Positions 18,583-63,968 of a stretch of DNA of 64,000 nt are shown in pieces (the stretch's first letter is position 1; each line of letters begins with the position of its first letter). The notes beneath the pieces are model-generated. The model was not told where the DNA came from, made no database searches, and saw nothing but the letters and a program-made list of their open reading frames with translations. Origin of the DNA: Alphaproteobacteria bacterium (GTDB lineage Bacteria; Pseudomonadota; Alphaproteobacteria; UBA828); the NCBI GenBank assembly GCA_965214705.1, contig CBDCCI010000002.1, forward strand, positions 2,368,001-2,432,000. The letters are read 5' to 3'. Both the position numbers and the translations under genes were made by a program.

Positions 18583-18827
18583 TTTTGGGGCTGGCTCAAG
18601 GGCTTGGACGAGACCCTAGGATACATCGCCGGATCGCCTTCCCCAAGGCGGTGCATGGTGCAATTATAGGGCCCGAGGCTGGTCCAAATCGCGCTCACGC
18701 ACTCACGACGGCGGCCTATGACAGGTCGATTGACGCCCATGTCCTTTGTAGTACGGTTGTCATGTTGGTCTCGTGAGAATCGCGTCGCGCGACGGGCCGA
18801 ACGGTGACTCGACTGGGAGAGGGAGCC

Positions 18828-20741
18828 ATGCCGGAGACGCCGCATCTGGACCGCGTGAAGAGCCCCGAAGACCTGCGCAGCCTCTCGGTCAAGGAACTCA
18901 AGAAGGTTGCCGAGGAGCTTCGCGCCGAGACCGTCGACGCCGTCTCGGTGACCGGCGGCCATCTGGGCGCCGGGCTTGGCGTGGTCGAGCTGACGGTGGC
19001 CCTCCACCATGTATTTGACACCCCGCGCGACCGCCTGATTTGGGACGTGGGCCACCAGTCATACCCGCACAAGATCATCACCGGGCGGCGCGAACGCATC
19101 CGCACCATCCGCCAGCCGGGCGGGCTCTACGGCTTCACCAAGCGGACCGAGAGCGAGTACGACCCCTTCGGCGCGGCGCACTCGTCGACCTCCATCTCCG
19201 CCGGCCTCGGCATGGCGGTGGCGAGCGAGCTCACGGGCGAAGCGCGCAACGTCATCTGCGTCATCGGCGACGGTGCCATGTCCGGCGGCATGGCCTACGA
19301 GGCGATGAACAACGCGGGCTCGATGCCACCCCGCCTCATCGTCATCCTCAACGACAACGAGATGTCGATCGCGCCGGCGGTGGGCGCGCTCAACGCCTAC
19401 CTCTCGCGGCTGCTCTCCAGCCACCAGTTCCGCAGCCTGCGTGAGCTCGGCAAGCAGTGGGCGCGCAGACTGCCCAAGGCGATGGGCGATGCCGCGATGC
19501 GGGCCGAGGAGTATTCCCGCGGCATGGTCACCGGCGGCACCCTCTTCGAGGAGTTGGGCTTCTTCTACATCGGGCCGATCGACGGCCACAATCTCGACCA
19601 TCTAGTCCCGGTGCTGCGCAACGTGCGCAAGGACGAGACGCCGGGGCCCGTGCTGCTCCACGTCGTCACCAGCAAGGGCAAAGGCTACGAGCCCGCCGAG
19701 AACGCGCCGGACCGCGGCCACGCGCTCGGCAAGTTCGACGTGGTGACGGGCGAGCAGAAGAAGAGCAAGCCCAGGGCGCCGAGCTACACCGCCGTGTTCG
19801 CCCAGAGCCTGATCAAGGAGGCGGACCGCGACGAGAAGATCGTGGCGCTCACCGCCGCCATGCCGTCGGGCACCGGGCTCGACAAGTTCGCCAAGGCACA
19901 CCCCACGCGCTGCTTCGACGTGGGCATCGCGGAGCAGCACTGCGTCACCTTCGCGGCAGGGATGGCAACGGAGGGGCTCAGGCCTTTCGCCGCGATCTAT
20001 TCCACCTTCCTGCAGCGCGCCTATGACCAGATCGTGCACGACGTCGCGATTCAGAAACTGCCGGTCCGCTTCGCCATCGACCGCGCCGGCCTGGTCGGCG
20101 CCGACGGCCCCACGCACGCCGGCAGCTTCGACATCACCTATCTCGCGACTCTGCCGGGCTTCGTCGTCATGGCCGCGGCGGACGAGGCCGAGCTCGTCCA
20201 CATGGTGCACACGGCTGCGAAGCTCGACGACTGCCCGAGCGCCTTCCGCTATCCGCGCGGCGAGGGCGTGGGCGTGCCGCTGCCGGAGACGCCCAAGATG
20301 CTGGAGATCGGCAAGGGACGGATCGTCCGCGAGGGCACGGCCATTGCGATCCTCTCCCTCGGCGCCCGCCTGCATGAGGCCCTGGCTGCGGCCGACGAGC
20401 TGCAGACGCGTGGGCTCTCCACCACCGTCGCCGATGCCCGCTTCGCCAAGCCGCTGGACGAAGACCTGATCCGCCGGCTGGCGCGGGAGCACGAGGTGGT
20501 GATCACCATCGAGGAAGGCTCGATCGGCGGCTTCGGCGCGCATGTCATGCAGTTCCTGGCCACGGCAGGCTTCCTCGACTCCGGCCTCAAGATCCGGCCG
20601 ATGCTCCTGCCCGACCGCTTCGTGGCCCACGGGACGCCCGCCGGCATGTACGAGGACGCGGGCCTTACCGCAGGCGACATCGTCGACACCGCGCTCGGCG
20701 CTCTCGGCAGCAATTCGGCCACCCTGCCGCAACGCGCCTGA
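18828..20741 (+). CDS. dxs: 1-deoxy-D-xylulose-5-phosphate synthase
   Basis: [52 protein letters not shown]. Confidence 0.97.
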
Positions 20742-20746
20742 CGCCC

Positions 20747-22738
20747 ATGGAGGTTGCGCGCGTCGGCCCGGACCGGCGGAGTGAAACCATCGTCCGCCAG
20801 CCGTCGGACAGTCAGGACGGCCCCGTTTCCTCCCCCGACATCGAGCAGGTCATCCAGGATGCCGCCGCCGGCCTGCGCGGCCTCCAGCACGACGACGGCC
20901 ACTGGCTGTTCGAGCTCGAGGCCGATGCGACCATCCCGGCGGAGTACGTCCTCCTCAACCACTTCCTCGACGAGCTCGATCCCGAGACCGAGGCACGTCT
21001 GGGCACCTACATCCGCAGCCGCCAGGCCGAACACGGAGGCTGGCCCCTCTTCCACGGCGGCGCGTTCGACATCAGCTGCACCGTCAAGGCCTACTACGCC
21101 CTCAAGCTGATCGGCGACGCCCCTGACGCCCCGCACATGATGCGCGCCCGCGAGGCCGTGCTCGCCGCCGGCGGCGCCGCGCGCTGCAACGTGTTCACGC
21201 GGATCACGCTCGCACTCTTCGGCCAGGTGCCGTGGCGCGCCGCGCCGGCGATGCCAGTGGAGATCATAAAGCTGCCGCGCTGGTTCCCCTTCCACCTGGA
21301 CAAGGTCTCCTACTGGTCGCGCACCACCATCGTGCCGCTCACGATCCTGCTCGCGCTCAAGCCTCGCGCCAAGAACCCGCGGGGCGTCGGCATCGCGGAG
21401 CTGTTCACGACCCCGCCGGAGCAGGAATGGCACTATTTCCCGAGGGAGACCCTCACGCAGTGGTCCTTCCTTACCCTCGACCGTGCGCTCACGGTCGGCG
21501 AGAAGGCGATACCGGGCAGGGTGCGCCGCCGCGCGATCGACAAGGCGCTCGACTGGTGCATGACGCGCCTCAACGGCGAGGACGGCCTGGGCGCGATCTT
21601 CCCGCCGATGGCCAACGTGGTCATGGCCTTCGATGCCCTGGGCTACGGGCGCGATCATCCGCCGCGCCGCACCGCCCGCCGCGCGCTCGACCTGCTGCTG
21701 ACCGAGCCGGTGAACGGCAGCCAATACTGCCAGCCTTGCGTCTCGCCGGTCTGGGACACGGGGCTCGCTGCGCTGAGCCTCATGGAGTGCGACGGTGAGC
21801 AGGACCGCCGCGCGGCGGACGATTCCCTCCCCTGGCTCGCCGACCTGCAGATCTGCGATCTCGCGGGCGACTGGGCCGCCATGCGGCCGGACGCCCTGCC
21901 GGGAGGCTGGGCCTTCCAGTACCGCAACGACCATTACCCCGACGTGGACGACACGGCGGTGGTGGCGATGGCGCTCCACCGCGCCGATCCCCAGGCGCAC
22001 CGCGAGGCGATCGAGCGGGCGGCCGCGTGGATCATCGCCATGCAGAACGAGAACGGCGGCTGGGGCTCCTTCGACGCCGAGAACGAGCACTACGCGCTCA
22101 ACCACATTCCCTTCGCCGACCACGGCGCCCTGCTCGACCCCGCGACCGCCGATGTCAGCGCGCGCTGCGTGAGCTTCCTCTGTCAGATCGGCTATTCGCG
22201 CGAGCACGAGACCGTCGCCAAGGGGCTCGCCTATCTCCTCGCGGAGCAGGAGGAGAACGGCTCCTGGTTCGGCCGCTGGGGCACCAACTACATCTACGGC
22301 ACCTGGTCGGTGCTCTGCGCCCTGAACGCCGCCGGCGAAGACCCGGCCTCGCCCGCCGTCCGCAAGGCGGTCGCCTGGCTCGAAGCCAAGCAGCGCGCCG
22401 ATGGCGGCTGGGGCGAGACCGGCGACAGCTACTATGCCGAGCGCATCGAGACCGCGTTCGACGTGGTCTCGACCCCGTCGCAGACCGCGTGGGCGCTGCT
22501 CGCGCTCATGGCTGCGGGCGAAGTGCGGAGCGACGCGGTGCAGCGCGGCATCGACTATCTCTGCGGCGCCGAGCGCGAGGGGGCGAAGTGGCTGGAGGAC
22601 GACTACACCGCGGTCGGCTTCCCCCGCGTCTTCTACCTCCGCTATCACGGCTACAGCGCCTACTTCCCGCTGTGGGCACTGGCGCGCTACCGCTCGCTCA
22701 CGCGCGGCAACGACCACCGCCCGCGCTACGGCATGTAG
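20747..22738 (+). CDS. shc: Squalene-hopene cyclase
   Basis: YPDVDDTA (DXDD), ELEADATIP, multiple QW repeats, GRWGTNYIYGTW, GFPRVFYLRYH; start position uncertain. Confidence 0.95.
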   Translation: MEVARVGPDRRSETIVRQPSDSQDGPVSSPDIEQVIQDAAAGLRGLQHDDGHWLFELEADATIPAEYVLLNHFLDELDPETEARLGTYIRSRQAEHGGWPLFHGGAFDISCTVKAYYALKLIGDAPDAPHMMRAREAVLAAGGAARCNVFTRITLALFGQVPWRAAPAMPVEIIKLPRWFPFHLDKVSYWSRTTIVPLTILLALKPRAKNPRGVGIAELFTTPPEQEWHYFPRETLTQWSFLTLDRALTVGEKAIPGRVRRRAIDKALDWCMTRLNGEDGLGAIFPPMANVVMAFDALGYGRDHPPRRTARRALDLLLTEPVNGSQYCQPCVSPVWDTGLAALSLMECDGEQDRRAADDSLPWLADLQICDLAGDWAAMRPDALPGGWAFQYRNDHYPDVDDTAVVAMALHRADPQAHREAIERAAAWIIAMQNENGGWGSFDAENEHYALNHIPFADHGALLDPATADVSARCVSFLCQIGYSREHETVAKGLAYLLAEQEENGSWFGRWGTNYIYGTWSVLCALNAAGEDPASPAVRKAVAWLEAKQRADGGWGETGDSYYAERIETAFDVVSTPSQTAWALLALMAAGEVRSDAVQRGIDYLCGAEREGAKWLEDDYTAVGFPRVFYLRYHGYSAYFPLWALARYRSLTRGNDHRPRYGM

Positions 22739-22761
22739 CAACCCAGACGACCGGGCACGCC

Positions 22762-23544
22762 ATGGCTGACCGGTCCCGCATTGGCATCGTCACGGGCCTC
22801 GTGGCGGAGGCCGCGACCCTGCCCAAGGACGATTTCCGGATCGCGGTCTCGGCGGCCGACCCCGCGCGCGCGGCACAGGCGGCCGGTGCGATGGTCGCGG
22901 GCGGCGTGCGGCTGCTGGTGAGCTACGGCCTCGCCGCCGGGATCGATCCGCGCCTCGGCCCCGGCACTCTGCTTCTGCCTGAGTCGGTGATTGCCCACGA
23001 GGGGGAGGTCGAGGCGCCCGACCGCGGCGGCGTGCGCGACCAGCTCCAGCGGATGACCTCCTTCAGGCGAGAGGAGGGGCGAGGCCCGCCGGAGCCGCCG
23101 CCGGAGGAGGACTACCTGCCGGTGGATGCAACCTTGCGCGAGGTACTTTCCCAGGGTCTCGGGGAACGCGCCGAAGGCGGTGCGCTCGCCGGCGTGGACC
23201 ACCCGTTGACGTACGGCGACCAGAAGCTCTCGCTCTTCGCGCAGACTCGCGCCAGGGCCGCGGACATGGAGAGCCACGTCGTCGCCCGCGCTGCGGCGGC
23301 GGCTGGCGTGCCCTTCGTCGTGATCCGCGTCGTCAGCGACCCGAGCAACCGAGCGCTTCCGCGAGCGGCCATCGTCGGGGTCACCGAGGACGGGCGCATC
23401 AGCGGCGGAGCGGTCGCGGGCGCGCTGCTGCGGCGCCCGTGGGAATGCATGGATATGCTGACGCTCGCGCTCGACGGAGCGCAGGCGATGCGCCGGCTAC
23501 GCCGCGTTGGTCGCCGGTTGGCGCCCCTTCTCGCGAGCCTGTGA
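22762..23544 (+). CDS. hpnG: Hopanoid-associated nucleoside phosphorylase
   Basis: IVTGLVAEA, SYGLAAG, ADMESH, RVVSDP; directly after shc. Confidence 0.8.
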   Translation: MADRSRIGIVTGLVAEAATLPKDDFRIAVSAADPARAAQAAGAMVAGGVRLLVSYGLAAGIDPRLGPGTLLLPESVIAHEGEVEAPDRGGVRDQLQRMTSFRREEGRGPPEPPPEEDYLPVDATLREVLSQGLGERAEGGALAGVDHPLTYGDQKLSLFAQTRARAADMESHVVARAAAAAGVPFVVIRVVSDPSNRALPRAAIVGVTEDGRISGGAVAGALLRRPWECMDMLTLALDGAQAMRRLRRVGRRLAPLLASL

Positions 23545-24669
23545 GGCTGCCTCTTCGGCCAGGCGTATCTCGCGCAGCTTATCCTGCACGTGCCGGTCGA
23601 ACATGTACTGGGCGGGGCGGGCCTTGGTCAGGTCGATCTCCGGCACCATCGGCCCGGTCGTCCTGATCCCGCGCAGCTTGACCATCAGCGCCGCCCAGGG
23701 CCGCGACAAGGAGTGCTCCGCCGCCGTCGGCTCGTAGCCGCAGTGGACCATGCAGTCCGCACACTTCTCGTAGCGGCCAGTGCCGTAGGAGTCCCAGTCG
23801 GTCTCCTCCATCAGCGCGCGGAAGCTCTCGGTATAGCCTTCGCCGATCAGGTAGCAGGGCTTTTGCCAGCCGAAGACGTTGCGGGTCGGGTTGCCCCAGG
23901 GCGTGCATTGGAAATCCTGGTTGCCGGCCAGGAAGTCCAGGAACAGGCTCGACTGGCTGAAGCGCCACTTCTTGCCCGCGCCGCGCGCGAAGATGTCGCG
24001 GAACAGCGCCTTGGTCTTGCTGCGGTTGAGGAAGTGCTGCTGGTCGGGCGCCCGCTCGTAGGAATAGCCGGGCGAGACCGTGATCGCCTCCACGCCCAGC
24101 TCGTCCGTCGCGAAGTCGAAGAATTCCGCAAGCCGCTCCGCCGGGTGGCCGTCAAAGACGGTGGCGTTGACGTTGACCCGGAAGCCCCGGCTGCGCGCCT
24201 CCTTGATCGCCGCCACGGCGCGCTTGAACGTACCGGGCTGATCGACCGCGTGGTCGTGCTCCTCCTCCAGCCCGTCGAGGTGGACCGAGAAGGTCAGGTA
24301 CTTGGTCGGCGTGAAGAGATCGAGCTTCTTCTTGAGCAGCAGCGCGTTCGTGCAGAGATAGACGAATTTCTTGCGCGCGATGATTTCGGAGACGATCTCG
24401 CCGATCTCGGGATGGATCAGCGGCTCGCCGCCGGGGATCGAGACCATCGGCGCACCGCACTCGTCCACCGCCTGCAGGCACTCGTCCAGGCTCAGGCGCT
24501 GGTTCAGGATTTCGGGCGGGTAGTCGATCTTGCCGCAGCCGGGGCACGCGAGGTTGCAGCGGAACAGCGGTTCCAGCATGAGCACGAGCGGATAGCGCTT
24601 CTCGCCCGCGAGCTTCTTGCCGACGATGTAGGCGCCGACGCGAATCTTCTGGATCAGCGGGACGGACAT
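23497..24669 (-). CDS. hpnH: Adenosylhopane synthase, radical SAM
   Basis: YPLVLMLEPLFRCNLACPGCGK (CxxxCxxC), CTPWGNPTRN, CADCMVHCGYE. Confidence 0.95.
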   Translation of the reverse strand: MSVPLIQKIRVGAYIVGKKLAGEKRYPLVLMLEPLFRCNLACPGCGKIDYPPEILNQRLSLDECLQAVDECGAPMVSIPGGEPLIHPEIGEIVSEIIARKKFVYLCTNALLLKKKLDLFTPTKYLTFSVHLDGLEEEHDHAVDQPGTFKRAVAAIKEARSRGFRVNVNATVFDGHPAERLAEFFDFATDELGVEAITVSPGYSYERAPDQQHFLNRSKTKALFRDIFARGAGKKWRFSQSSLFLDFLAGNQDFQCTPWGNPTRNVFGWQKPCYLIGEGYTESFRALMEETDWDSYGTGRYEKCADCMVHCGYEPTAAEHSLSRPWAALMVKLRGIRTTGPMVPEIDLTKARPAQYMFDRHVQDKLREIRLAEEAASQAREKGRQPATNAA

Positions 24670-24675
24670 GAGCCC

Positions 24676-25653
24676 CTACTCGGCAGGCGCCGCACCGGCG
24701 GCCGGCTCCTGCGCCTTGCCGTTGCCGCTCGCCTCGACCAGCTCGGCCGGCAGCTTGAAGCGCACCCGCTCCTTGATCCCGTCCTGGATCTGCAGCTCGA
24801 CCGCGTTGATCTCGCGCAGCCGGGCGACCAGGTCCTGCACCAGCTCTTCCGGCGCCGACGCGCCGGCGGTCACGCCCACGCGGCGCACGCCGTCGAACCA
24901 CGTCGGGTCGAGGTCGCGAGCGTCGTCGATCAGGTGGGTCGGCACGCCCATCTCCTCGCCGATCTCGCGCAGGCGGTTGGAGTTGGAGCTGTTGCGCGCG
25001 CCCACGACGAGGATCAGCTCCACGTCTTCCGCCAGCTTGCGCACCGAAGCCTGGCGGTTCTGCGTCGCGTAGCAGATGTCCTTCACGTCGGGGCCGGAGA
25101 TGCTGGGGAAGCGCGAGGTCAGCGCTTCGATCACGTCGCGCGTGTCGTCGACGCTGAGCGTGGTCTGGGTGACGTAGGCCACCTTGTCCGGGTTGGCCAC
25201 CTCCAGCTTGGCCACGTCGTCGGGCGTGGCGACGATATGCACCCCGTTCTTCACGCGGCCGCTGGTACCCTCGACCTCGGGATGTCCGTCGTGGCCGATC
25301 AGGATGATCTCGCGGCCCTCGCGCTCGTAGCGCCTGGCCTCAATGTGCACCTTGGCGACCAGCGGGCAGGTGGCGTCGATCACCGGCAGGTTCCGACCCG
25401 CGGCCTCGCTCTCCACCTTCTCCGAGACGCCGTGGGCGCTGAAGATGGTGACCGCGCCCTCGGGCACCTCGTCGATCTCCTCGACGAAGACCGCGCCCTT
25501 CTTGCGCAGGTCGTCCACCACCCGCTTGTTGTGCACGATTTCGTGGCGGACGTAGACCGGCGGGCCGAATACTTCGAGCGCCCGCTCGACGATCTCGATT
25601 GCCCGCTCGACGCCTGCGCAGAAGCCTCGGGGCTCCGCCAGGATGACCTGCAT
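24676..25653 (-). CDS. ispH: 4-hydroxy-3-methylbut-2-enyl diphosphate reductase
   Basis: [46 protein letters not shown]; ATG at 25653. Confidence 0.96.
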
Positions 25654-25879
25654 GCTGCCGTTGTCGCCCACGTTAGGCCCTCGCTTAATCATGGGGGTGC
25701 TCGGGGCGGGACCGTCGACTCCGCACCCAGAGCCACCACTGCACCCTATCGCAGACCTGTGATTCCGACAACACGCAGGTTCCCCGTCCGTTTTCGGCAC
25801 CGGCCTCCCGAAAAGGCGGGCCGCCGGCCTGGGATTTTTGGCAAGAAACACACTTTTTTTGAGTCGGCACGAGCCGGGA

Positions 25880-26359
25880 TCATGCGGGATTCCCGTCTAC
25901 GTCCAAAGGATTCCGTCCCATGCTCCGGTCAGCGCTGACGGGGCGGGGCATCCGCTCGCGCTCCGCAAGCAGCTTGCCCGCGCCTTCGATGCGCAGCAGC
26001 GCAAGGGCGAGGCGGGCGATCTCAATCGGCTCCACCGGTTCTCCGTCTCTGTCGAGCGTGGCCACCGTCATCGCCGCCGCCGCGCCCACGGCTTCGAGCG
26101 CGACTGGCCGGGTGCCGTCCCTGGCACTCTCGACGATGGCGGCCGCCCAGGTCTTGGCGGCGCGGTCGATCTCGCGCCGCCGGTGGATCTGCTCGCGCCT
26201 GCGCTTGACGTAGCGGCCCACGGACGAGCGCGAGCACGCGGCGCCGTGTGCGCGAATCACCGCCGCGATGGCGTCGATGGTGGCGCCGTCCTCGATCGCC
26301 ACGTCCACGGCGGCGCGGATCTCGGGCGGCAACAGCTCAATTGTGGAACGCCGGCTCAT
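25880..26359 (-). CDS. DUF3486 / phage Mu gp27-like protein, isolated
   Basis: [19 protein letters not shown]...SRSSVGRY N-terminus is typical of this family. Confidence 0.6.
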
Positions 26360-53530: not shown

Positions 53531-54062
53531 TTACTTTCTCTCTCGCGTGCTTCACTCACCACGAGATACATCATGTAGCGAGTCGCTCGGCGGGAATAAC
53601 AAGAGATAGTATCGGTCCGGGCGCTTCACCTGAACGGTGCACCTTCCTGGATGGCAAGGTGGGGCGGCATGGCGCTTATTCGTAGCTGCTTGAGAGTGTC
53701 GAGATAATCGGGGCGCGGGGAGAGAGTGGCGAAGCGCTCCGATTCAGCGGGGATGAGCGACAAGGCGATGGCGGCCGCCTTGGCGAATCCGGTGCGAACC
53801 ACCATGAGCGCCATCGATGCGCAGACCGGGTGCGAGAGCGCAGGCTCGAGCGATCATTCGAGGGCGTAGCGCTGACAATTGGCGTCTGGCGGTGCAGTGG
53901 CGAAGTGACACGGAAGGGCGTTGGCCACAGGCAGGGAGGGCGGAGCGCGGGCGATGGCGGAGCGCAGCAACGCTTGACGTATCGCGACACGATACGGGAA
54001 GGATGATGCTGGCGCATAGCGCCGAGCGCGGGATGGCGATGCCGTCCGCCCCGCCGTCCGAC

Positions 54063-54504
54063 AATCAAGGGTCGCAAACGCCACATCCTCACCGACACCG
54101 GCGGCCTGTTGGTTGCCGCTCAGGTCCACGCCGCCAACATCCAGGATCGCGACGGCGCTCCCTCGGTGCTTGCGTCCATCCGCCACGCCTTCCCCTGGCT
54201 GCGTCACGTCTTCGCCGATGGTGCCTATGCCGGCCTCAGGCTCGCGGCGGCTCTGGAGCGGATCGGTCGGTGGACCCTGGAGATTGTCCAGCCCCGGCTG
54301 GTACGCGAGGGTTCGATATCCTGCCGCGCCGCTGGGTGGTCGAGCGCACACTGGCTTGGTTGAACCGCAATCGACGGCTCGCCAAGGACTTCGAGGCCAC
54401 CGTCGCCACCGCCCAAGCGTGGCTCTTCATCGCCAGTGTTCAACTCCTCACCAGAAGACTGGTAAGATACTGAAAATCAATATCTTATTATAGGCCAGAC
54501 TCTT
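54063..54504 (+). pseudogene. IS5-family (IS1031-like) transposase 3' remnant with right end
   Basis: [50 protein letters not shown] across frameshifts; ends ..AGACTC-TTA. Confidence 0.8.
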
Positions 54505-54615: not shown

Positions 54616-55350
54616 TCAATAGCCGAGAACGCTGTAGTCGCCGTTCACGATCAGGCGAATCGAGACGTAGAGGCCCAGCAGGGCGAACAGCACCCACGGG
54701 CAATTCAGCGCCCAGATATAGATGTACATATCCTTTCGGCCGAGGCGGCTTTGTCGATTGGCCACGAAGAAGCTGACCCAGTAGACCGACGTCGCGTAGG
54801 TCAACTGCCAGAATATCATCGCTCCCATAATGCCGGCGACGAGGGCGGGCAAGAAATCGACGGTGAAGGCGGCAAAGAGGATCAGCGTCGGTACCGGCGT
54901 TACGAAGCCGTTGGCGATATCTACGTTGTAACCGTATGTGCGCCGGTCCGCGTAGGAACTGTCGAACTGGGAATACGTGGCCCAGACGTCCGCCCACATC
55001 GTCGACGACAATATTCGCGTCAAGGGAACCCTTCCAGTAAGGAATTCGGCGGCTGGTGTCCGGCCCGTTTCCCGCCGGCGTTCGCGCCAGTATTGGGCGC
55101 GCTTCTCGATGTAGTCGCGGTTGAAGAACAGGCATATCTCCCAATGGCAGATCACCAGATTGATGGAAAAGAAGAGGATCAGCAGTGCATGAATGACGTC
55201 GAAATCCCCGCGGACGCCGTAGCGCGCACCGATGCCGGACGCTGTCAGAATTGCGATGACCAGCCCCGTGAATACGACCGGCGCAATCGCCAACCGAGTC
55301 CGGTGGGTGTCGCGACCCGAACGGGTTTGCGCGGCTTGCTTTTCGGCCAT
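54616..55350 (-). CDS. EXPERA/EBP-like membrane protein, candidate sterol Delta8-Delta7 isomerase
   Basis: Multi-TM; VWATYSQFDSSY resembles EBP LWKEYAKGDSRY; ALNCPW resembles EBP MNALW; sterol-gene context; ATG at 55350. Confidence 0.62.
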   Translation of the reverse strand: MAEKQAAQTRSGRDTHRTRLAIAPVVFTGLVIAILTASGIGARYGVRGDFDVIHALLILFFSINLVICHWEICLFFNRDYIEKRAQYWRERRRETGRTPAAEFLTGRVPLTRILSSTMWADVWATYSQFDSSYADRRTYGYNVDIANGFVTPVPTLILFAAFTVDFLPALVAGIMGAMIFWQLTYATSVYWVSFFVANRQSRLGRKDMYIYIWALNCPWVLFALLGLYVSIRLIVNGDYSVLGY

Positions 55351-55538
55351 GTGGTCCCATCCTCTCTGGCGCTGCGGCGTTGCCTCTCGCCCCATTGTAC
55401 CCTGTGGAAAGTTCGACGCCCCGAACAAGGGCGCTACGCCTGGGACTCCGTGGATATCGGCGTCATGAAGCGAGGCATCGGAGTTTCCCATGGCTTTCCG
55501 GTCTTGGGGACGACGTGCGGCTCTGGCAGAATGTGCCC

Positions 55539-56570
55539 ATGAATCGCACCTCCGCCACCCGATCGAAAGCGCGCTCCCTCGCGGGCCTCGCCCCGGACGA
55601 AGTAAAGTCCACGGTCGATGGATACACCGAAATCTTTGACGCCGGCCTGGAGCACAGGAAAGAGCATTATCGCTCGTTCGTGAGTCGCTACTACGACCTG
55701 GCGACCGACTTCTACGAGTTCGGTTGGGGCCAATCCTTTCACTTCGCACCCCGCAGCCGGGGCGAGAGCTTCAAGGCATCGCTGCTCAGACACCAGCATT
55801 TTCTCGCTGAAAAGCTGTCCCTGAAGCCGGGTATGCAAGTAATCGATCTGGGATGCGGGGTCGGCGGACCGATGGGCAATCTGGCCCGTCATTTCGGGGC
55901 GAGCTTTGTCGGCGTCAACAACAACGCCTACCAGATCGAGCGCGCAAGACTGCACACTCGGGATGTCCAGTCGTTATGTCGCTTTATTCACAGTGACTAC
56001 ATGGAGATTCCCGACGACGACGACCGCTACGATGCCGCCATGGCGATCGAGTCCATGCCCCACGCACCCGACAAGACAGCGGCGTTCCGCGAGGTCTTGC
56101 GCGTGCTGCGTCCGGGGGCCTGTTTCGCGGGCTACGAGTGGTGCGTTACCGACATATTTGATACCGGCAAGACGGAGCACCGGCGAATAAAAAACGATAT
56201 CATGGCCGGGAATGGGCTGCCGGATATCGCGACCACGTCGGAAGTTTCCGCCGCATTGCAGACGGCTGGATTCGAGCTCCTGGAAGCGCGCGACCGCGCA
56301 CCCGAAGCGGACCCGGAGATGCCGTGGTACCGTTCCTTGCAGGGCCGCGACCTCAGTCTTTCGAGTATTCCGCGCACGCCGGTCGGCCGCGTTCTGACTA
56401 ATTTCACTTTGCGGGTGGGAGAACGGCTGCGGCTCTTTCCCGAGGGCGCCCGCGCAGTCAGCACGCTCCTGAATGCGGGAGCGGACGCGCTGGTGGACGG
56501 CGGCAAGTCCGGCGTCTTCACGCCGATGTTCTTTTTCCTGGCCCGCAAACCCGGGCGCCCGCGCGACTGA
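55539..56570 (+). CDS. Sterol C24-methyltransferase (SMT/ERG6-like)
   Basis: YYDLATDFYEFGWGQSFHFA (region I), IDLGCGVGGP (SAM), AIESMPHAP, LRPG..FAGYEW, C-terminal GVFTPMF. Confidence 0.9.
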   Translation: MNRTSATRSKARSLAGLAPDEVKSTVDGYTEIFDAGLEHRKEHYRSFVSRYYDLATDFYEFGWGQSFHFAPRSRGESFKASLLRHQHFLAEKLSLKPGMQVIDLGCGVGGPMGNLARHFGASFVGVNNNAYQIERARLHTRDVQSLCRFIHSDYMEIPDDDDRYDAAMAIESMPHAPDKTAAFREVLRVLRPGACFAGYEWCVTDIFDTGKTEHRRIKNDIMAGNGLPDIATTSEVSAALQTAGFELLEARDRAPEADPEMPWYRSLQGRDLSLSSIPRTPVGRVLTNFTLRVGERLRLFPEGARAVSTLLNAGADALVDGGKSGVFTPMFFFLARKPGRPRD

Positions 56571-59600: not shown

Positions 59601-60043
59601 GTGTGAACCGTGCCGTTGTTGCTGTAGGACAGCCGCTCGTCTTCGACCGCATTCACCCGCGCATGGGTGAAGAAATCCACATCCGCCTCCTTCTCGACGG
59701 CTTCCCGCAGTGTCGAGACGAGCAAGGCGTGTTCGCAAGCCAGACCCTGCGAGCCATTCGTGTAGGGAAGGACGATCGGCTCCGAGCCGTCTTCCGGGAA
59801 CACCACGAAACCCCTGCCCGTGGCGCTGCGGGGCAGGGTGTCGAGCCCGATCCCGATGTCCTGCAGTATCTGTACCCCAGGTGGATGCAGCCATTCGCCC
59901 GCCAGGCGCTCTGACCCCTTGGGATTCGCTTCGAGCAGAACCACCCGGGCGCCCTTCCGCGCGTGAGCGAGCGCGCACAGGCTCCCGACCGGCCCCGCGC
60001 CGACAATGGCCACGTCGTAACGCCGCGACGCGGCGCCGCTCAT
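56630..60043 (-). CDS. Squalene epoxidase-oxidosqualene cyclase fusion (1137 aa)
   Basis: N-half: IVGAGPVG, RLAGEWLHPPG, GDAAGHYHPMTAVGMT. C-half: PSWGKFWLALL, WYCHTR, HGWPVSDCTAEA, YVECTAS, QW repeats. One uninterrupted frame. Confidence 0.9.
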   Translation of the reverse strand: MSGAASRRYDVAIVGAGPVGSLCALAHARKGARVVLLEANPKGSERLAGEWLHPPGVQILQDIGIGLDTLPRSATGRGFVVFPEDGSEPIVLPYTNGSQGLACEHALLVSTLREAVEKEADVDFFTHARVNAVEDERLSYSNNGTVHTLDAARIVGADGRASIVRQSLGLSTDPMLCSRMLGITVSDVSLPFEGHGHVLLGGPGPILAYGLAKGCVRIIVDVPLDRWTRQDRIGFLTESHAVLLPEALRPGFVEAVRAGQFHVAANQLRPRVTYGTPRRVLIGDAAGHYHPMTAVGMTLGFGDALALAESGSFREFAAGRFRATQVPELLAMGLYEVFADHRAEAVAMRHAVYRGLRTNSYYRDRTTRILACEDRSALEMGLAFFATAARAAAVEIPLSLRRFAPRRGLKIFGALTVRLLWLLRWALQLRQSRRQGGRNDERALDSLARALLHSMPPRPHASGSGRPKDSEAPDAGPALGSTTAHLLSLQGEDGGWEGEMVWCPMLTAQYVLLHHIIGRPLEPGRRRRVLRSFERTRLEAGSWGLHEHSSPHLFVTALVYVAARLLGVERDDPLVEPARRFIQAEGIVGIPSWGKFWLALLNLYDWRGVNAVLPELWSLPRRLPLHPSNWYCHTRLIYMAMAAIYPHRFQAPVTPAIASLREELYPHGFAEVDFSAARNRLREADLYARPSVWLKVGYKIARVFNRLHGKRLRARCTEAIVRQIRWELQTTSHTSISPVSGLLNMLALWLRDPDDADLRQALAKLDDWIWEDEEEGARVVGARSASWDSGFALQALAAVPAFGGVGDALQRGADFLLGEQIAASFEGFREAYRTDPRGGWCFAGGWHGWPVSDCTAEAVLGLHAAGRGAAHASALRDAVGFMLRCQNRDGGFGSYEARRSAFGLEWMNPAEMFGDSMTEQSYVECTASCLAALAACMEDVPQIANGAVTGAMSRAGAWLRWTQASDGSWRGVWGVQFIYGTLFGVRGLLAARAGPGDPALRSACRWLLERQREDGGWGEHHSGCLTGRYVPHDESQVIQTAWALIALLEAGESNWTAISRGARFLLDAQDADGTWPKQDMAGVFFRTALLDYVLYRQYFPLHALALYEQRRRQRLGLAAHAPCAADTSPPPPEAAAA

Positions 60044-61449
60044 CGGAAGACGCTCGGCTGCGCGCAGCGACGGTAGCGGACCCGGCACGGTCTCTCGGGT
60101 CCCGTCACCCAGCTGCCGTAGTTCGGACGCGGAAACGCGCCGCTGGGAGTGAAGTCGAAACGATCGAGCAGAACGGTCCAGATCGCCTTGAGCTGCATGT
60201 AGGCGAAGTTCTTACCCATGCACGCGTGCTTGCCGCCGCCGAAGCCGATCAGGGCGTAGCGGTGTTGCCTGTCCTCGCTGGCGGGAGGCGCGAAACGGTC
60301 GGGGAAGAAGCGCTCCGGGTCGGCGAATATGTGGGGCAAGCGGTGAGAGACCGCCGGCGACACCATGGCCATGGAGCCGGCGGGCACGACACGGCCTCCG
60401 TAGCGCAGGGGTTCGAGCACCTTGCGGATCAGCAATATCAGCGGCGGGTGCAGCCGCTCGCACTCGCGGACGGCATTCTCCAGAGCCGGCTGGCGCTGGA
60501 GACTGTCGATGCTCATGCTCCCCGCTTCGCGATAGACGTCCTGCACCTCGTCTCTTACCCGCGCCAGGTACGCCGGCGCCCGGAGCAGCTCCAGACCGGT
60601 CCAGGTCGCGAGCACCGCACTGGTGTGCTGGCCCGCGAACAGCACCGTCAGCAGGATCCCCGTGATCTCGTCGTCGCTCAGGGCGCGGCCGCTCTTGTAG
60701 CGGGCGTTCATGAGCGTCTGCATGAAGTCGTCGGGGCTGGCCCCCGCATTCCGGCGCGCCGCCATGATCCCGCCGAAGAGCTCCGCCACCCGTCGCCGGG
60801 CCCTGTCGCGCTTTCGATGCGACGCAACGGGAAGCCTGGGAAGAAAGAATCCCAGGGTGTTAATGCCCTTCTGCAGGTCGTGGTAGGTCTCGGCAAAGCC
60901 GGTATCCACCCGATCGCGGACTTCCTGTCCGATCAGGCAGCGGCTGGCGATCTTGACCGTGAGCTCGTTCATCGCGTGCGGCAGATCGATTTCCCCATCC
61001 TCGCCCAGGGCGTCGGCGAACTGCCGCGCCTCATCGAACATGACGAGGGCGAACCTGCGCATTGCCGCCTCACGGAGCGCTGGAAAGAGAAAGCCCAGCT
61101 GCTCCGCCATGATGTCGGGGGAGGTGTCGTAGGCCACGCCGCGCCCGAAGATGGGCACGGTGAAGCGGTAGACGGCCTTGGCGTTCAACTGCTCCTCGGG
61201 CGTCCTGAAATAGAAGTCGTGGGCTTGGGGACCGGAGAAGAGAACGAAAGCGCGGGTACCGAGCCGGAAGCGGAAGAGCTCACCGTGCTCGCGCCAGCCG
61301 CGGCTCAACATGGCGACCGGATCTCTCTGGAACTCCGGCAAATGGCCGATCAGCGGCCAGCGGCCCGCAAGCTCGGGAAGGGGCTCGTCTGCCCGCGGCG
61401 GCAGATTCGCCGTAGGCAGGGTCGCCATGCTGTCGGTTCGGTTGGCCAT
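60040..61449 (-). CDS. cyp51: Cytochrome P450, sterol 14-alpha-demethylase type
   Basis: YRFTVPIFGRGVAYD, FAGQHTS, ExxR (ECERLHPP), FGGGKHACMG heme motif. Confidence 0.9.
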   Translation of the reverse strand: MANRTDSMATLPTANLPPRADEPLPELAGRWPLIGHLPEFQRDPVAMLSRGWREHGELFRFRLGTRAFVLFSGPQAHDFYFRTPEEQLNAKAVYRFTVPIFGRGVAYDTSPDIMAEQLGFLFPALREAAMRRFALVMFDEARQFADALGEDGEIDLPHAMNELTVKIASRCLIGQEVRDRVDTGFAETYHDLQKGINTLGFFLPRLPVASHRKRDRARRRVAELFGGIMAARRNAGASPDDFMQTLMNARYKSGRALSDDEITGILLTVLFAGQHTSAVLATWTGLELLRAPAYLARVRDEVQDVYREAGSMSIDSLQRQPALENAVRECERLHPPLILLIRKVLEPLRYGGRVVPAGSMAMVSPAVSHRLPHIFADPERFFPDRFAPPASEDRQHRYALIGFGGGKHACMGKNFAYMQLKAIWTVLLDRFDFTPSGAFPRPNYGSWVTGPERPCRVRYRRCAQPSVFR

Positions 61450-61457
61450 CTCCGCTC

Positions 61458-62558
61458 TCAATGGATGAAGGGCAGCATCGCGAAGCGCGCCCGCTGCGTG
61501 TAGCGCTCCCACAGCTCGCCGTACTTGGCGCGGCAGCGGCGCTCGTCGCGTCTCGAACGGTGCCACAGCAAGCCCGCTAGCCACGCCGGCAACAGGAAGG
61601 GAGCCCAGGACGTAAGCCCGGTGGTCAGGGCGAAGGCGAGGTAGACGCAGATCTCGCCGGTGTAGTTGAGGTGCCGGCCGATGCCCCAGAACCCGGAGAC
61701 CAGGAGGCGCCCGTCCAGGGTACGGGCGGGCTTGCCCCAGATCCTAACGTTGGAATCGCGCTTGAAGCGGTGCTTCTGCTGATTGGACCCGCGGAAGAGC
61801 CAGAAGCCGAAAACGAAGAGCACGACGATCCCGGCGGCGGCGGCCGGAGACAAGGGCTCCGGTGCGTGAACCAGCCACCAGCCGGGGAGACAGTAGAAGA
61901 AGGGCACCAGCACGTAATCGCCCCAGACCAGCATCCATCCGAAGCGCTCGCGGACGATGTCCCAGGTATGGATCATCCCCTGTTCGAACTGGAAGTAGTT
62001 GAGCACGTAGAGGAAGGTGAAGGTCTGGTAGAGCATCATCGCCAGGGTCAGCTCGCCGTAGGTCTCGTACTGCACGGCGGCAAACGATGCGTTGAAGAGC
62101 GCTAGGCCGATGAGGGAGGGGCAGTAGCTGAAGAGCTTGATATCCAGCCCGAGCCAGGATGGAGCGGCGTCCACCCCGTAGAAGAAGTCCCGCCATGATC
62201 TGGGCGATGCATGAGGCTTTCGCACCCCGCGCAGGTAGAGCCAGCCGGAGAGGGCGAACGCGAATCCGTTCGCCACGACGAACAGGGCGAGCAAGTGGGT
62301 ATGCAGCACCGAAAGGGAGAGCACGCCGGAGGCTTGCGCGCCGCACGCCGCAATCATGACGATCAGATAGAGCGCGAGGCCGTTGAGCTTGTAGACGCGC
62401 TCGTTCCCGTCGGCATCCGGGCCCGTGATCCGACGACCCGGCAGCAGCAGCGAAGCCACGAAGAGGAGGGCGATGAACCCCAGCACCATCGCCGCCGCCT
62501 CGAGCAGGGTCTCGCCCGAGAGCGCCGACGAGAGGTTGAGCGCTTCAGGCGGCGGCAT
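61458..62558 (-). CDS. ERG4/ERG24-family sterol reductase (probably Delta14)
   Basis: WDIVRERFGWMLVWGD, FRGSNQQKHRF, LLVSGFWGIGRHLNYTGE, RDERRCRAKYG. Confidence 0.88.
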   Translation of the reverse strand: MPPPEALNLSSALSGETLLEAAAMVLGFIALLFVASLLLPGRRITGPDADGNERVYKLNGLALYLIVMIAACGAQASGVLSLSVLHTHLLALFVVANGFAFALSGWLYLRGVRKPHASPRSWRDFFYGVDAAPSWLGLDIKLFSYCPSLIGLALFNASFAAVQYETYGELTLAMMLYQTFTFLYVLNYFQFEQGMIHTWDIVRERFGWMLVWGDYVLVPFFYCLPGWWLVHAPEPLSPAAAAGIVVLFVFGFWLFRGSNQQKHRFKRDSNVRIWGKPARTLDGRLLVSGFWGIGRHLNYTGEICVYLAFALTTGLTSWAPFLLPAWLAGLLWHRSRRDERRCRAKYGELWERYTQRARFAMLPFIH

Positions 62559-63642
62559 CGCCGCTCTCCGACCCGCGCGCCAGATGTTCCTGCCACTTGC
62601 GCACGGTCACTTTCTGAAAGGCCCTGACCACCGGATTGAACTCGACAGGACGGGCGTCCCAGTGTCTTTCGTATCCCTCCTGCTCCGCCTCCAGCGCGAA
62701 CCGGTCCTGGGTGAGCAGGGGGGCGATGAGCAGGCGATTGGAGACCTTCATGACCGCGGTCATGGCGAAACGGGGAATGCGCACCGGCAGCAGAGGTACT
62801 TTCAGCGACTTGAAATAGAACAGGAAGAACACCCGGCTGGTGCGCTCGTCGACCGGCAGCACGAAGAGCCAGTGCTTTATTGCGTCGTCGGTGTTCGACC
62901 ACTGGTAGGGGTACTCGTAGCAAAGCTCCATGCGGTTGGTGTTGAGCCGCCGATGATCGACGAAGAGGCCCGAGATGCGCCCGCGCCCCACGTGCGTGTC
63001 GTAGGCGAGATGCACGTTGTCGCCGAGGGTCTCGCAGCGGGTGAGGGTGGCCCCGTCGAAGGGCCGGTAGCGGCGGTGCAGGTGTGCGTGGGTGAAGTCG
63101 CTCACATTGTCGATCACCATCGAGTGGTGTGCCGACCAGGTGAAACAGAGCGGCACGCAGGCCCAGCGGCCGGATCCCTCGAGCTCAGGAATGTCCGGAA
63201 TCCGGCGCTCCTCCGCCAGCGCCGGATCTCCCGGGAAGAGCCAGATCAGACCGTAGCGGACCTTCACCGGATAGGTCTTGAGCGCAAGATTCGGAAAGCT
63301 TCGCCCCTCGCGATCATGGGGCACCCCGGCGGGACGCCCCTTCCCGCCATACTCCCAGCCATGGTAGGCGCAGACGAGCCGGCATCCCTGCACGTCGCCC
63401 AGGGAGAGCTTGAGCTGGCGATGCGCGCAGCGATCCTCGACCGCCTGGAAGGTGCCGTCCTTTCCCCGGAAGAGCGCGATGGAACGCTTCCAGAAGACGA
63501 CCTCGATCACCGTCTCCGGCTTGATCCGGCGCAATTCCTCGACCGGATACCAGTAATTCGGGTCCATGCCCGCGGCGCGAGCCTGCTGGCGCAGGTTGCC
63601 GGCGTCCTCGAAGCCGGGCGGCGCGGCGGGCGCCGCCCTCAT
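62545..63642 (-). CDS. Rieske non-heme iron oxygenase, SdmA-like sterol C-4 methyl oxidase candidate
   Basis: CAH..CAYH Rieske ligands, DNVSDFTHAHLH Fe site; operon context. Confidence 0.75.
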   Translation of the reverse strand: MRAAPAAPPGFEDAGNLRQQARAAGMDPNYWYPVEELRRIKPETVIEVVFWKRSIALFRGKDGTFQAVEDRCAHRQLKLSLGDVQGCRLVCAYHGWEYGGKGRPAGVPHDREGRSFPNLALKTYPVKVRYGLIWLFPGDPALAEERRIPDIPELEGSGRWACVPLCFTWSAHHSMVIDNVSDFTHAHLHRRYRPFDGATLTRCETLGDNVHLAYDTHVGRGRISGLFVDHRRLNTNRMELCYEYPYQWSNTDDAIKHWLFVLPVDERTSRVFFLFYFKSLKVPLLPVRIPRFAMTAVMKVSNRLLIAPLLTQDRFALEAEQEGYERHWDARPVEFNPVVRAFQKVTVRKWQEHLARGSESGDAAA

Positions 63643-63960
63643 GGCGCGCTCCCGCCTGCCATCATCCGCATGCCCTGGTCCGGCGCGGGATCACCCTCCT
63701 CACGCGTAACATGCCGACTCGCGGCGTCCTCGCACGGGCGCTTCGCGTGCGGGTTCGCGATCTTGTTGCGGCCGTAGTGGAACGCATAGGCCTCATGAAC
63801 CGCGGCACGGAGGCCGGTCGGCCGATAGCCGAGCTCCCGTTTCGCCTTGGAGATGTCGGCGTGGCGGCACTTTCGCAACAGGCGTATGGCGCCGGGGGTG
63901 AAGCGCTGGGGAAAGCCCGGGTGAACCCGACTCAGATAGAAGCTCGCGATTTCGGCAAAG
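63639..63960 (-). CDS. C-terminal part of an NAD-dependent epimerase/3-beta-HSD-type SDR, SdmB-like candidate (partial)
   Basis: Frame reads FAEIASFYLSRVHPGFPQRFTPGAIRLLRKCRHADISKAKRELGYRPT; ATGA overlap with the Rieske gene; 5' part not visible. Confidence 0.6.
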
Positions 63961-63968
63961 GTTAAGGG

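Follow-up and report, generated by a model that had tools for sequence, protein, structure and literature searches.

A probable MsbF-type sterol C-24 methyltransferase in an alphaproteobacterial genome, with a variant region III that appears to be the norm of its clade

Does a departure from the canonical region III of a bacterial sterol C-24 methyltransferase (SMT) point to unusual side-chain chemistry? The question is raised by a gene in the genome of an Alphaproteobacteria bacterium (GenBank assembly GCA_965214705.1; three contigs, 7.92 Mb, 98.5% complete, 8.7% contamination). The stretch of DNA analysed, referred to below as the window, is 64,000 nucleotides long and corresponds to C3:2368001-2432000 (contig CBDCCI010000002.1). 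In a preliminary description of the window the gene was regarded as a bacterial SMT with a YEFGWG region I and with AIESMPHAP in place of the canonical (Y)AIEATCHAP, and atypical C28, C29 or C30 products were considered possible for this reason. The interpretation favoured here, with a probability of about 0.8, is that the gene encodes an intact and probably active member of the MsbF-type clade. ESMPHAP would be the normal state of region III in this clade; C28 and perhaps C29 sterols, but not C30 sterols, would be formed, and the upstream part of the pathway has suffered recent damage.

The gene is a single open frame encoding 343 residues followed by a stop codon. Its start was placed at the ATG at 55539 and not at the upstream in-frame TTG at 55380, since the homologues share the same N-terminus (MNRT/MSRT...) and the same length of 343 residues. 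The Sterol_MT_C domain (PF08498; E 1.3e-20, 73.6 bits against a cut-off of 21.7) lies C-terminal to a class-I S-adenosylmethionine (SAM) methyltransferase domain, for which the Methyltransf_25 and Methyltransf_11 profiles also score above their cut-offs. Region I, YEFGWGQSFHF, agrees with the aromatic motif [YF]E[YFW]GWGxxFHF, and region II, DLGCGVGGP, with the motif DxGxGxxGP; D103, G105, G107, G110 and P111 are invariant across alignment A1. An exhaustive HMMER search of a library of 1.84 billion proteins returned 391 representatives at E<=1e-30. The protein is 46% identical to a rice cycloartenol C-24-methyltransferase-like protein (P0127) and 39% identical to Cladosporium ERG6 (P0317), both of them named members of this set. 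The identity to the eukaryotic SMT1/ERG6 proteins spans the full length and includes the same four regions and C-terminal domain, the window SMT differing from them in its shorter N-terminus and in lacking the 7-residue insert that Cladosporium ERG6 carries before the C-terminal domain. NCBIfam contains no equivalog for the protein; its profiles for cyclopropane-fatty-acid and other methyltransferases match weakly, with scores far under the respective cut-offs. No solved true SMT was found in the PDB, where the best match was MitM at 1.9e-19; the entry 6f5z, annotated as "24-sterol C-methyltransferase", matches the window SMT in the methyltransferase core only.

A scan of one genome per prokaryotic species yielded 165 relatives of the window SMT, and the best 80 of these (62-100% identity) were taken as related loci. 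According to the labels of their metagenome-assembled genomes (MAGs), these loci come from Alphaproteobacteria, Defluviicoccus, Rhodospirillales, Nitrospirales, Nitrospinaceae and Binatia; from Gammaproteobacteria including Ca. Porisulfidus, Arenicellales and Ca. Poriferihabitaceae; from Rhodothermales; and from Bryobacterales, Terriglobia, Vicinamibacteraceae, Gemmatimonadota (Ca. Palauibacter) and Thermodesulfobacteriota. In the IQ-TREE phylogeny (74 rows), all SMTs linked to a sterol cluster form one clade of 37 rows with a Shimodaira-Hasegawa-like approximate likelihood-ratio (SH-aLRT) support of 99. The window SMT and the SMT of locus L034, considered below, fall inside it. Internal branches of this clade are short compared with the long ones seen for eukaryotic SMTs and for the other SMTs of bacteria, and a FastTree phylogeny of 205 rows agrees on the clade with a support of 99. 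The window SMT sits with the Alphaproteobacteria MAGs L003-L006 (84-86% identity). A near-identical MAG, L001, carries an SMT of 99.7-100% identity and other cluster genes of 96-98% identity. Three tandem SMT genes with 80%, 47% and 47% identity to the window SMT occur in another Alphaproteobacteria MAG (L010:1162-4345).

The protein thus groups with assayed SMTs and not with non-sterol methyltransferases (SH-aLRT 99). Together with the domain above its cut-off and the 39-46% identity to fungal and plant SMTs, this upholds the first description of the gene as a bacterial SMT, and the region I noted there is present as described. On these grounds the window SMT can be regarded as an intact SAM-dependent sterol C-24 methyltransferase that is probably active. 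By analogy with the family, it would add the methyl group of SAM to the delta-24 double bond of a sterol supplied by the neighbouring enzymes. The aromatic region I would stabilise the resulting cation, and deprotonation would give a 24-methylene or a 24-methyl-delta-25 sterol.

In alignment A1, region III reads VYAIEATVHAP in Cladosporium, AYAIEATCHAP in rice and AMAIESMPHAP in the window SMT. The departure from the canonical form is therefore real: MAIESMPHAP stands where the eukaryotic proteins have YAIEAT[CV]HAP, and four residues differ from YAIEATCHAP. Methionine replaces the tyrosine equivalent to yeast Tyr192, Ser-Met-Pro replaces Ala-Thr-Cys, and Glu195 is kept as Glu171. The expectation that this motif marks the gene out was not borne out by the close homologues. 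These were compared in an alignment of 121 rows, composed of the 120 clusters found at 74-99% identity by a word-index search and of the window SMT. YEFGWGQSFHF of region I is identical in 100 of the 121 rows, and the four residues that follow Ile170 are ESMP in 98 of them, the window SMT counted. Most SMTs of the 80 related loci also carry ESMP. The commonest complete strings are AFAIESMPHAP (66 rows) and AIAIESMPHAP (23), AMAIESMPHAP being found in 5 rows including the window SMT. In a set of 150 representatives at greater distance, the canonical AYAIEATCHAP (15) and VYAIEATCHAP (10) are the most frequent strings. Of region III, the preprint of Brown & Welander 2025 lists only Glu195 as conserved across every functional SMT, so the canonical YAIEATCHAP is typical and not required. 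Judged from these alignments, ESMPHAP is the ancestral and conserved state of the MsbF-type clade and no peculiarity of the window SMT. The sole minority feature of the protein is the methionine at the Tyr192 position (5 of 121 rows), where the two commonest strings have phenylalanine (66) or isoleucine (23).

Assayed relatives bear directly on the products. The remark that functional bacterial SMTs are known from metagenomes agrees with the study of Brown et al. 2023 (PMC10070321), in which 8 of 10 SMTs from sponge symbionts are reported to have methylated desmosterol in vitro. Three of the ten also gave 24-ethyl sterols, and two of these three, both from A. aerophoba, gave C30 sterols. Three of the related loci correspond to sources that appear in Supplementary Tables 2 and 4 of that study. 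Locus L092 (LXNJ01014139.1, P. ficiformis) encodes an SMT 84% identical to the window SMT, with AFEIEATAHAP as region III and asparagine at the position equivalent to yeast residue 249. In L095 (LXNI01004480.1, S. foetidus, that is Sarcotragus foetidus) the SMT is 74% identical, with AFAIESMPHAP and aspartate at 249. Locus L034, a Ca. Porisulfidus TsSOB contig of 444,506 bp, has an SMT of 72% identity with AIAIESMPHAP and asparagine at 249; this gene matches the assayed "T. swinhoei-associated Chromatiales sp. 1 of 2" gene, presumably being the same one, an assignment resting partly on synteny. ESMPHAP is thus carried by two of the three loci named as sources of assayed SMTs, those of the S. 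foetidus and Theonella swinhoei symbionts. The symbiont SMTs of Brown et al. resemble the window SMT in length (341-344 against 343 residues), in the YEFGWGQSFHF string and in the fused epoxidase/cyclase encoded next to them. They differ from it in having phenylalanine or isoleucine at the Tyr192 position, and the P. ficiformis protein differs also in reading EATAHAP where the window SMT reads ESMPHAP. In the legend of Fig. 3 of PMC10070321, the sponge-symbiont clusters are drawn as "including functional sterol methyltransferases". A legend in the preprint of Brown & Welander 2025 states that the A. aerophoba, P. ficiformis and T. swinhoei clusters each hold a functional SMT.

The same preprint offers sequence rules for activity and for the number of methylations. 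It lists 25 residues conserved across all functional SMTs, and the window SMT keeps 25 of 25. These were mapped by motifs and constant offsets, the check in A1 being made against Cladosporium ERG6 and the rice SMT1-like protein and not against the S. cerevisiae sequence. Glycine at 249 is reported to occur in all known propylating SMTs and to be necessary for C30 formation. The G249A, S, N and T mutants still yield C29, the G249N mutant giving C28 and C29 but no C30. Phenylalanine at 81 or 83 raises C30 formation and is neither necessary nor sufficient for it. The window SMT has Tyr81 and Phe83 and so carries the phenylalanine expected at 81 and/or 83 in propylating SMTs. It lacks their glycine, having Asn225 in the column of A1 where fungal ERG6 has aspartate and the SMT of locus L014 has glycine. 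This mapping agrees with the numbering of the preprint, in which G249 corresponds to G225 of the A. aerophoba symbiont SMT. Across the 121 rows of the clade, the position is occupied by aspartate (81), asparagine (32), threonine (5) and glycine (3). The propylating SMTs described from a Chlamydiae MAG and from the A. aerophoba symbiont share Phe83 with the window SMT and differ from it in having Gly249 instead of asparagine. The A. aerophoba enzyme adjoins a fused epoxidase/cyclase gene, and its cluster is of the same kind.

From Tyr81, Phe83, Asn249 and the 25 conserved residues, the window SMT is predicted to make 24-methyl (C28) and perhaps 24-ethyl (C29) sterols, and not C30 sterols. The proposal that region III foretells atypical products finds no support, given that ESMPHAP is found in assayed relatives and that the published determinants of methylation number are residues 249 and 81/83. 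As judged from sequence, nothing in the evidence indicates an atypical product, and C30 formation would run counter to the published rules.

The surroundings of the gene (Table 1) lead to the same placement within the clade. The order of the genes is sdmB, sdmA, ERG24, CYP51 and the fused squalene epoxidase/oxidosqualene cyclase, with the SMT gene on the opposite strand. The fusion protein has SE and FAD_binding_3 domains in its N-terminal part and SQHop_cyclase_N and SQHop_cyclase_C domains in its C-terminal part. A full-length fusion is present in 64 of the 80 related loci, and in 62 it is found together and in synteny with the P450, reductase and Rieske genes. The fusion has already been published (PMC7074536; PMC10070321 Methods). 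The same set of genes was described by Mohanty et al. 2020 (PMC7074536) as the msb locus in a gammaproteobacterial symbiont of Melophlus sarasinorum, where msbE encodes the bifunctional epoxidase/cyclase and msbF the sterol methyltransferase. The two loci share an NAD(P) oxidoreductase, a Rieske oxygenase, a sterol reductase, a C-14 demethylase, the epoxidase/cyclase and the SMT; the order also matches, provided that msbA to msbF are lettered in map order. The comparison covers the gene set and its order. In the window, the equivalent of msbA (sdmB) is split by an insertion sequence (IS), and a gene for a protein of the EBP fold lies beyond the SMT gene; the flanking genes of the msb locus are described in its paper as unlike sterol genes.

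Table 1. Location of the SMT gene, its sequence regions and the genes around it (positions in the window; aa, amino acid residues; A1, alignment A1)
Feature	Position	Strand	Basis
SMT gene, sterol C-24 methyltransferase, MsbF-type, "SMT-A" clade of sponge-symbiont bacteria	55539..56570	+	open reading frame, Pfam, tree
Region I, YEFGWGQSFHF, aa 59-69; contains Tyr81 and Phe83 in yeast numbering	55713..55745	+	translation, alignment A1
Region II, SAM-binding DLGCGVGGP, aa 103-111	55845..55871	+	translation, alignment A1
Region III, AMAIESMPHAP, aa 167-177	56037..56069	+	translation, alignments
Asn225 codon, yeast position 249 equivalent	56211..56213	+	alignment A1, motif/offset mapping
Sterol_MT_C domain, aa 279-338	56373..56552	+	Pfam
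MobF/TrwC-type relaxase-helicase, 1,157 aa	49627..53100	-	Pfam TrwC E 1.3e-56 and AAA_30
DDE (IS5-like) transposase remnant, between relaxase and sterol cluster	53817..54473	+	weak Pfam
244-aa membrane protein, EBP/EXPERA fold, candidate sterol double-bond isomerase	54616..55350	-	structure model
Fused squalene epoxidase/oxidosqualene cyclase, MsbE-type, 1,152 aa	56630..60088	-	Pfam
Cytochrome P450, CYP51-type sterol 14-demethylase candidate, MsbD-type	60040..61584	-	Pfam p450 E 1.3e-57; syntenic in related loci
ERG4/ERG24-family sterol reductase, C-14 reductase candidate, MsbC-type	61458..62558	-	Pfam ERG4_ERG24 E 6.2e-68
Rieske oxygenase, SdmA/MsbB-type, C-4 demethylation	62545..63642	-	Pfam Rieske and VanA_C; position as published sdmA
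sdmB 3' fragment (aa ~279-385), epimerase/3-beta-hydroxysteroid dehydrogenase type	63639..63960	-	tblastn with L001 SdmB

The "cluster of steroid genes" of Ircinia was found in 115 of 537 MAGs from 10 phyla (Kelly et al. 2022, PMC9531527), and conflict between the gene trees and the genome tree was taken there to indicate horizontal transfer; low omega values were also reported. Like the window cluster, the Ircinia clusters comprise an ERG24-CYP51-LSS core with DFR and a hypothetical protein upstream and an SMT on the opposite strand downstream. Many of the related loci share the naming pattern of the Ircinia MAGs (jk18x.../p16x...). The main text of Kelly et al. contains no wording of the type mobile, transposase, plasmid or conjugati-, whereas the window cluster abuts a MobF relaxase gene and IS remnants. 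The same arrangement, including the fusion, was reported for symbionts of A. aerophoba, P. ficiformis, S. foetidus and T. swinhoei (Brown et al. 2023, PMC10070321). From its sequence and setting, the window SMT is accordingly best described as the MsbF-type methyltransferase of the published sponge-symbiont sterol cluster.

The genes of the window cluster are not all intact, because sdmB is split near codon 280-300 by an IS91-type insertion of 2,663 bp (C3:2431961-2434623; L082:961-3623). Starting at window position 63961 and running beyond the window, the insertion carries genes for an IS91 Y2 transposase and for a tyrosine recombinase. A tblastn search with the intact 386-residue SdmB of L001 recovers two pieces, and in the DNA alignment with L001 the collinear parts are separated by 2,663 bp. 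Contigs of run X1 extend 22-24 bp into the element at both junctions in sdmB, and a contig of run X8, another sponge metagenome, crosses the uninterrupted site. The insertion must hence be real and strain-specific, and it is recent, as the near relative L001 and the X8 contig have the site uninterrupted. The genome contains 68 near-full-length copies of the element, 97.8-100% identical, in 7.9 Mb, which indicates a recent IS burst. The split in sdmB is recent damage to the upstream part of the pathway, at C-4 demethylation, and the sterols formed, if the cluster still runs, probably keep their C-4 methyl groups.

Several observations weigh against the interpretation favoured here. Four SMTs having all the conserved residues were inactive in assays (Brown & Welander 2025 preprint), so the sequence rules are insufficient for activity. 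The ESMPHAP-bearing relatives are placed in clusters with functional SMTs by a figure legend and not by products given for each enzyme. The Introduction of the preprint states that Y192F changes the number of products in yeast, the ERG6 mutant methylating twice. Given the methionine at this position, an effect on product number is possible in the window SMT as well. Finally, with sdmB broken and an IS burst in the genome, this lineage may no longer maintain the pathway by selection.

The last of these points could also mean that the window SMT is intact but idle, the pathway being lost in the course of the IS burst and the gene heading for a pseudogene. This is unlikely, yet it is the most probable of the alternatives. 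It draws on the split in sdmB by the 2,663-bp element, on the 68 near-identical copies, on the transposase genes and fragments around the cluster, and on the uninterrupted sites in L001 and X8 that make the damage recent. Against this, the other six cluster genes align over their full length with those of L001 at 96-100% identity without stops, and every conserved residue is kept in the window SMT. A further SdmB-like protein, 35% identical, is encoded on contig C1. Moreover, the SMT reaction can precede C-4 demethylation, as in plants, where SMT1 acts on cycloartenol. In the coral metatranscriptome run X18, only short contigs, mostly 90-95% alike, were found on parts of the cluster and none in one SMT bin; transcription of the window SMT is not shown by this run.

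It is improbable, more so than an idle gene, that the altered residues of region III (Met168, Ser172, Met173 and Pro174) reshape the sterol pocket so that C30 sterols, an unusual olefin or methylation at another carbon results. Region III is implicated in sterol binding in the preprint of Brown & Welander 2025, and the yeast Y192F effect together with the minority methionine in the window SMT is in keeping with such a role. Region III and residue 249 also seem to be linked. The Gly249 proteins of the clade, P0023, P0077 and P0113, read EATV, ESTA and EATA, so that ESMP occurs in none of these three as opposed to 98 of the 118 others. The association amounts to three independent pairs on the tree (sign test p 0.25). 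It is a hint from sequence that region III may share in setting the product number, not a result. The link itself argues against an atypical window SMT, because ESMP accompanies the non-propylating states. Besides, the motif is conserved throughout the clade and present in assayed relatives, the Gly249 reported as necessary for C30 is absent, and only three of the ten assayed symbiont SMTs went beyond C28, two of them from A. aerophoba (PMC10070321).

That the protein is not a sterol enzyme at all and methylates a hopanoid or another triterpenoid is very improbable: hopanoid genes (squalene-hopene cyclase, HpnH) do lie 33 kb away in the same window and NCBIfam provides only the sub-cut-off matches to other methyltransferases, but the Sterol_MT_C domain, the 39-46% identity to fungal and plant SMTs, the clade shared with assayed sterol methyltransferases and the conserved position beside the oxidosqualene cyclase fusion in 64 of the 80 loci all speak for a sterol substrate.

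Phe81, Phe83 and Gly249 (FEFGWG..., IMVGGGLP) together with ESTAHAP are found in the Nitrospira-type SMTs of L014 (10001-11029), L093 and L094 (6001-7014). By the rule of the preprint, these three proteins are the best candidates for the formation of 24-isopropyl sterols.

The start of the 244-residue gene lies 188 bp from that of the SMT gene, and the two are transcribed divergently. Of the 80 related loci, 33 contain the 244-residue gene, which is the immediate divergent neighbour of the SMT gene in 20 of the 80. Its family has 677 members at E<=1e-3, of which the top 120 are all unnamed or "hypothetical". The protein has no Pfam family, with only noise at E 10 and no match to the EBP profile; a genome-wide search with PF05241 (EBP) found nothing, and a profile search of the PDB with the protein returned no EBP. 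The fold tells a different story. An AlphaFold2 model built with 21 homologues has a predicted local distance difference test score (pLDDT) of 82 and a predicted template modelling score (pTM) of 0.77. With Foldseek, human EBP (8w0r_A) comes first with a probability of 1.00 and template modelling (TM) scores of 0.55/0.62, a second EBP entry (6oht_A) has TM 0.48/0.56, and the other rows have TM <=0.29. An all-against-all comparison with VIA-align gives EBP 6oht_A at Z 15.2 (root-mean-square deviation 2.6 A, 178/206 residues), followed by the sigma-2 receptor TMEM97 (7m93_A) at Z 10.4 and by the next match at 7.7. The model thus has the EXPERA fold by both methods. Protein language-model features place 22 of 30 matches in the EBP-bearing set. 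The fold is common to this protein and to human EBP, a delta8-delta7 sterol isomerase, and TMEM97, while a sequence-level match to them is absent; identity in the structural alignment to EBP/TMEM97 is 12-14%.

From this fold and the genetic context, the 244-residue protein is a candidate sterol isomerase. EBP was inferred to have arisen within eukaryotes by Hoshino & Gaucher 2021 (PMC8237579), who also noted three uncharacterised genes as frequent companions of bacterial SMT genes. A full-text literature search on bacterial EXPERA-fold sterol proteins found no account of them, the single paper returned being unrelated. A tentative extension, rather doubtful as a whole, would be that the SMT and a divergent EBP-fold delta8-delta7 isomerase form a two-gene tailoring module on a mobile sterol island, with region III (ESMP or EAT[VA]) and residue 249 acting as a joint gate for one, two or three methylations.

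On the other side of this gene, the cluster is bordered by remains of mobile elements. The relaxase has annotated MobF relaxases as its best plasmid matches, at <=29% identity. It also adjoins the sterol cluster in L002, a close relative, where it is 88% identical, and the 5' end of the gene persists in L001. The DDE remnant matches DDE_Tnp_1/DDE_Tnp_1_2 below the cut-off and with its C-terminal part only, the local guanine-plus-cytosine (GC) content being 0.605 against about 0.67. The region around the cluster also holds other transposases, fragments of integrase and Druantia DruA genes, and a toxin-antitoxin pair. Just beyond sdmB lie two adjacent DruA fragments (L082:4981-5874, minus strand) and a partial tyrosine-integrase gene (L082:6998-7657, plus strand). 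A stretch of low GC content (0.54-0.61) at C3:2446-2457 kb resembles a genomic-island setting. No gene for type IV secretion or a coupling protein was found among the open reading frames scanned around the cluster, and no transfer RNA gene lies within the 64-kb window. For these reasons the relaxase is to be considered an orphan, and the setting of the cluster is at most a relic of a mobilisable element.

Other genes of sterol and hopanoid metabolism are found elsewhere in the genome. A second SMT paralogue of 343 residues (G000:C1:854358-855389; L085:1495-2526, minus strand) has an aberrant region I, MQFGWGESLHF, and GYAIESTCHAP as region III, and it adjoins a transposase-like gene. In the tree it falls into a different clade (SH-aLRT 100), whose members recur as a second SMT in Nitrospirota, Binatia and Arenicellales loci. 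The substrate of the paralogue may differ, because it lacks Phe89, which is conserved in functional SMTs. A second ERG4/ERG24-family reductase of 381 residues (L090; G000:C1:2183972-2188042) is flanked by a short-chain dehydrogenase and a 397-residue class-I methyltransferase, and this region may be a further sterol-tailoring locus. HpnC/D-type squalene synthase genes are also encoded in the genome. Within the window, positions 18777-25896 hold genes for DXP synthase, squalene-hopene cyclase (20378-22738), an HpnH-type radical SAM protein (23497-24675) and IspH. As these hopanoid genes share the window with the sterol cluster, the organism encodes both cyclases within about 35 kb.

For the debate on sterane biomarkers, the window SMT is one more example and brings nothing new beyond that; publications already cover the bacterial SMTs of the clade, the cluster that encodes them and the way it has spread among sponge symbionts. 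The side leads are modest and comprise the EBP-fold neighbour, the link between region III and residue 249, the IS-split sdmB and the adjacent relaxase. ESMPHAP is to be read as the normal region III of the bacterial clade rather than as a hint of unusual chemistry. ESMP is absent from all the rare Gly249 proteins of the clade, in which 24-isopropyl sterol formation would be expected, and this offers an inexpensive way to refine the published sequence rule, one that can be tested. If the EBP-fold neighbour is an isomerase, bacterial sterol tailoring would be extended by one eukaryote-like step. The cluster, caught beside conjugation and IS genes and in the middle of decay, bears on the movement of the pathway between symbionts and on its stability.

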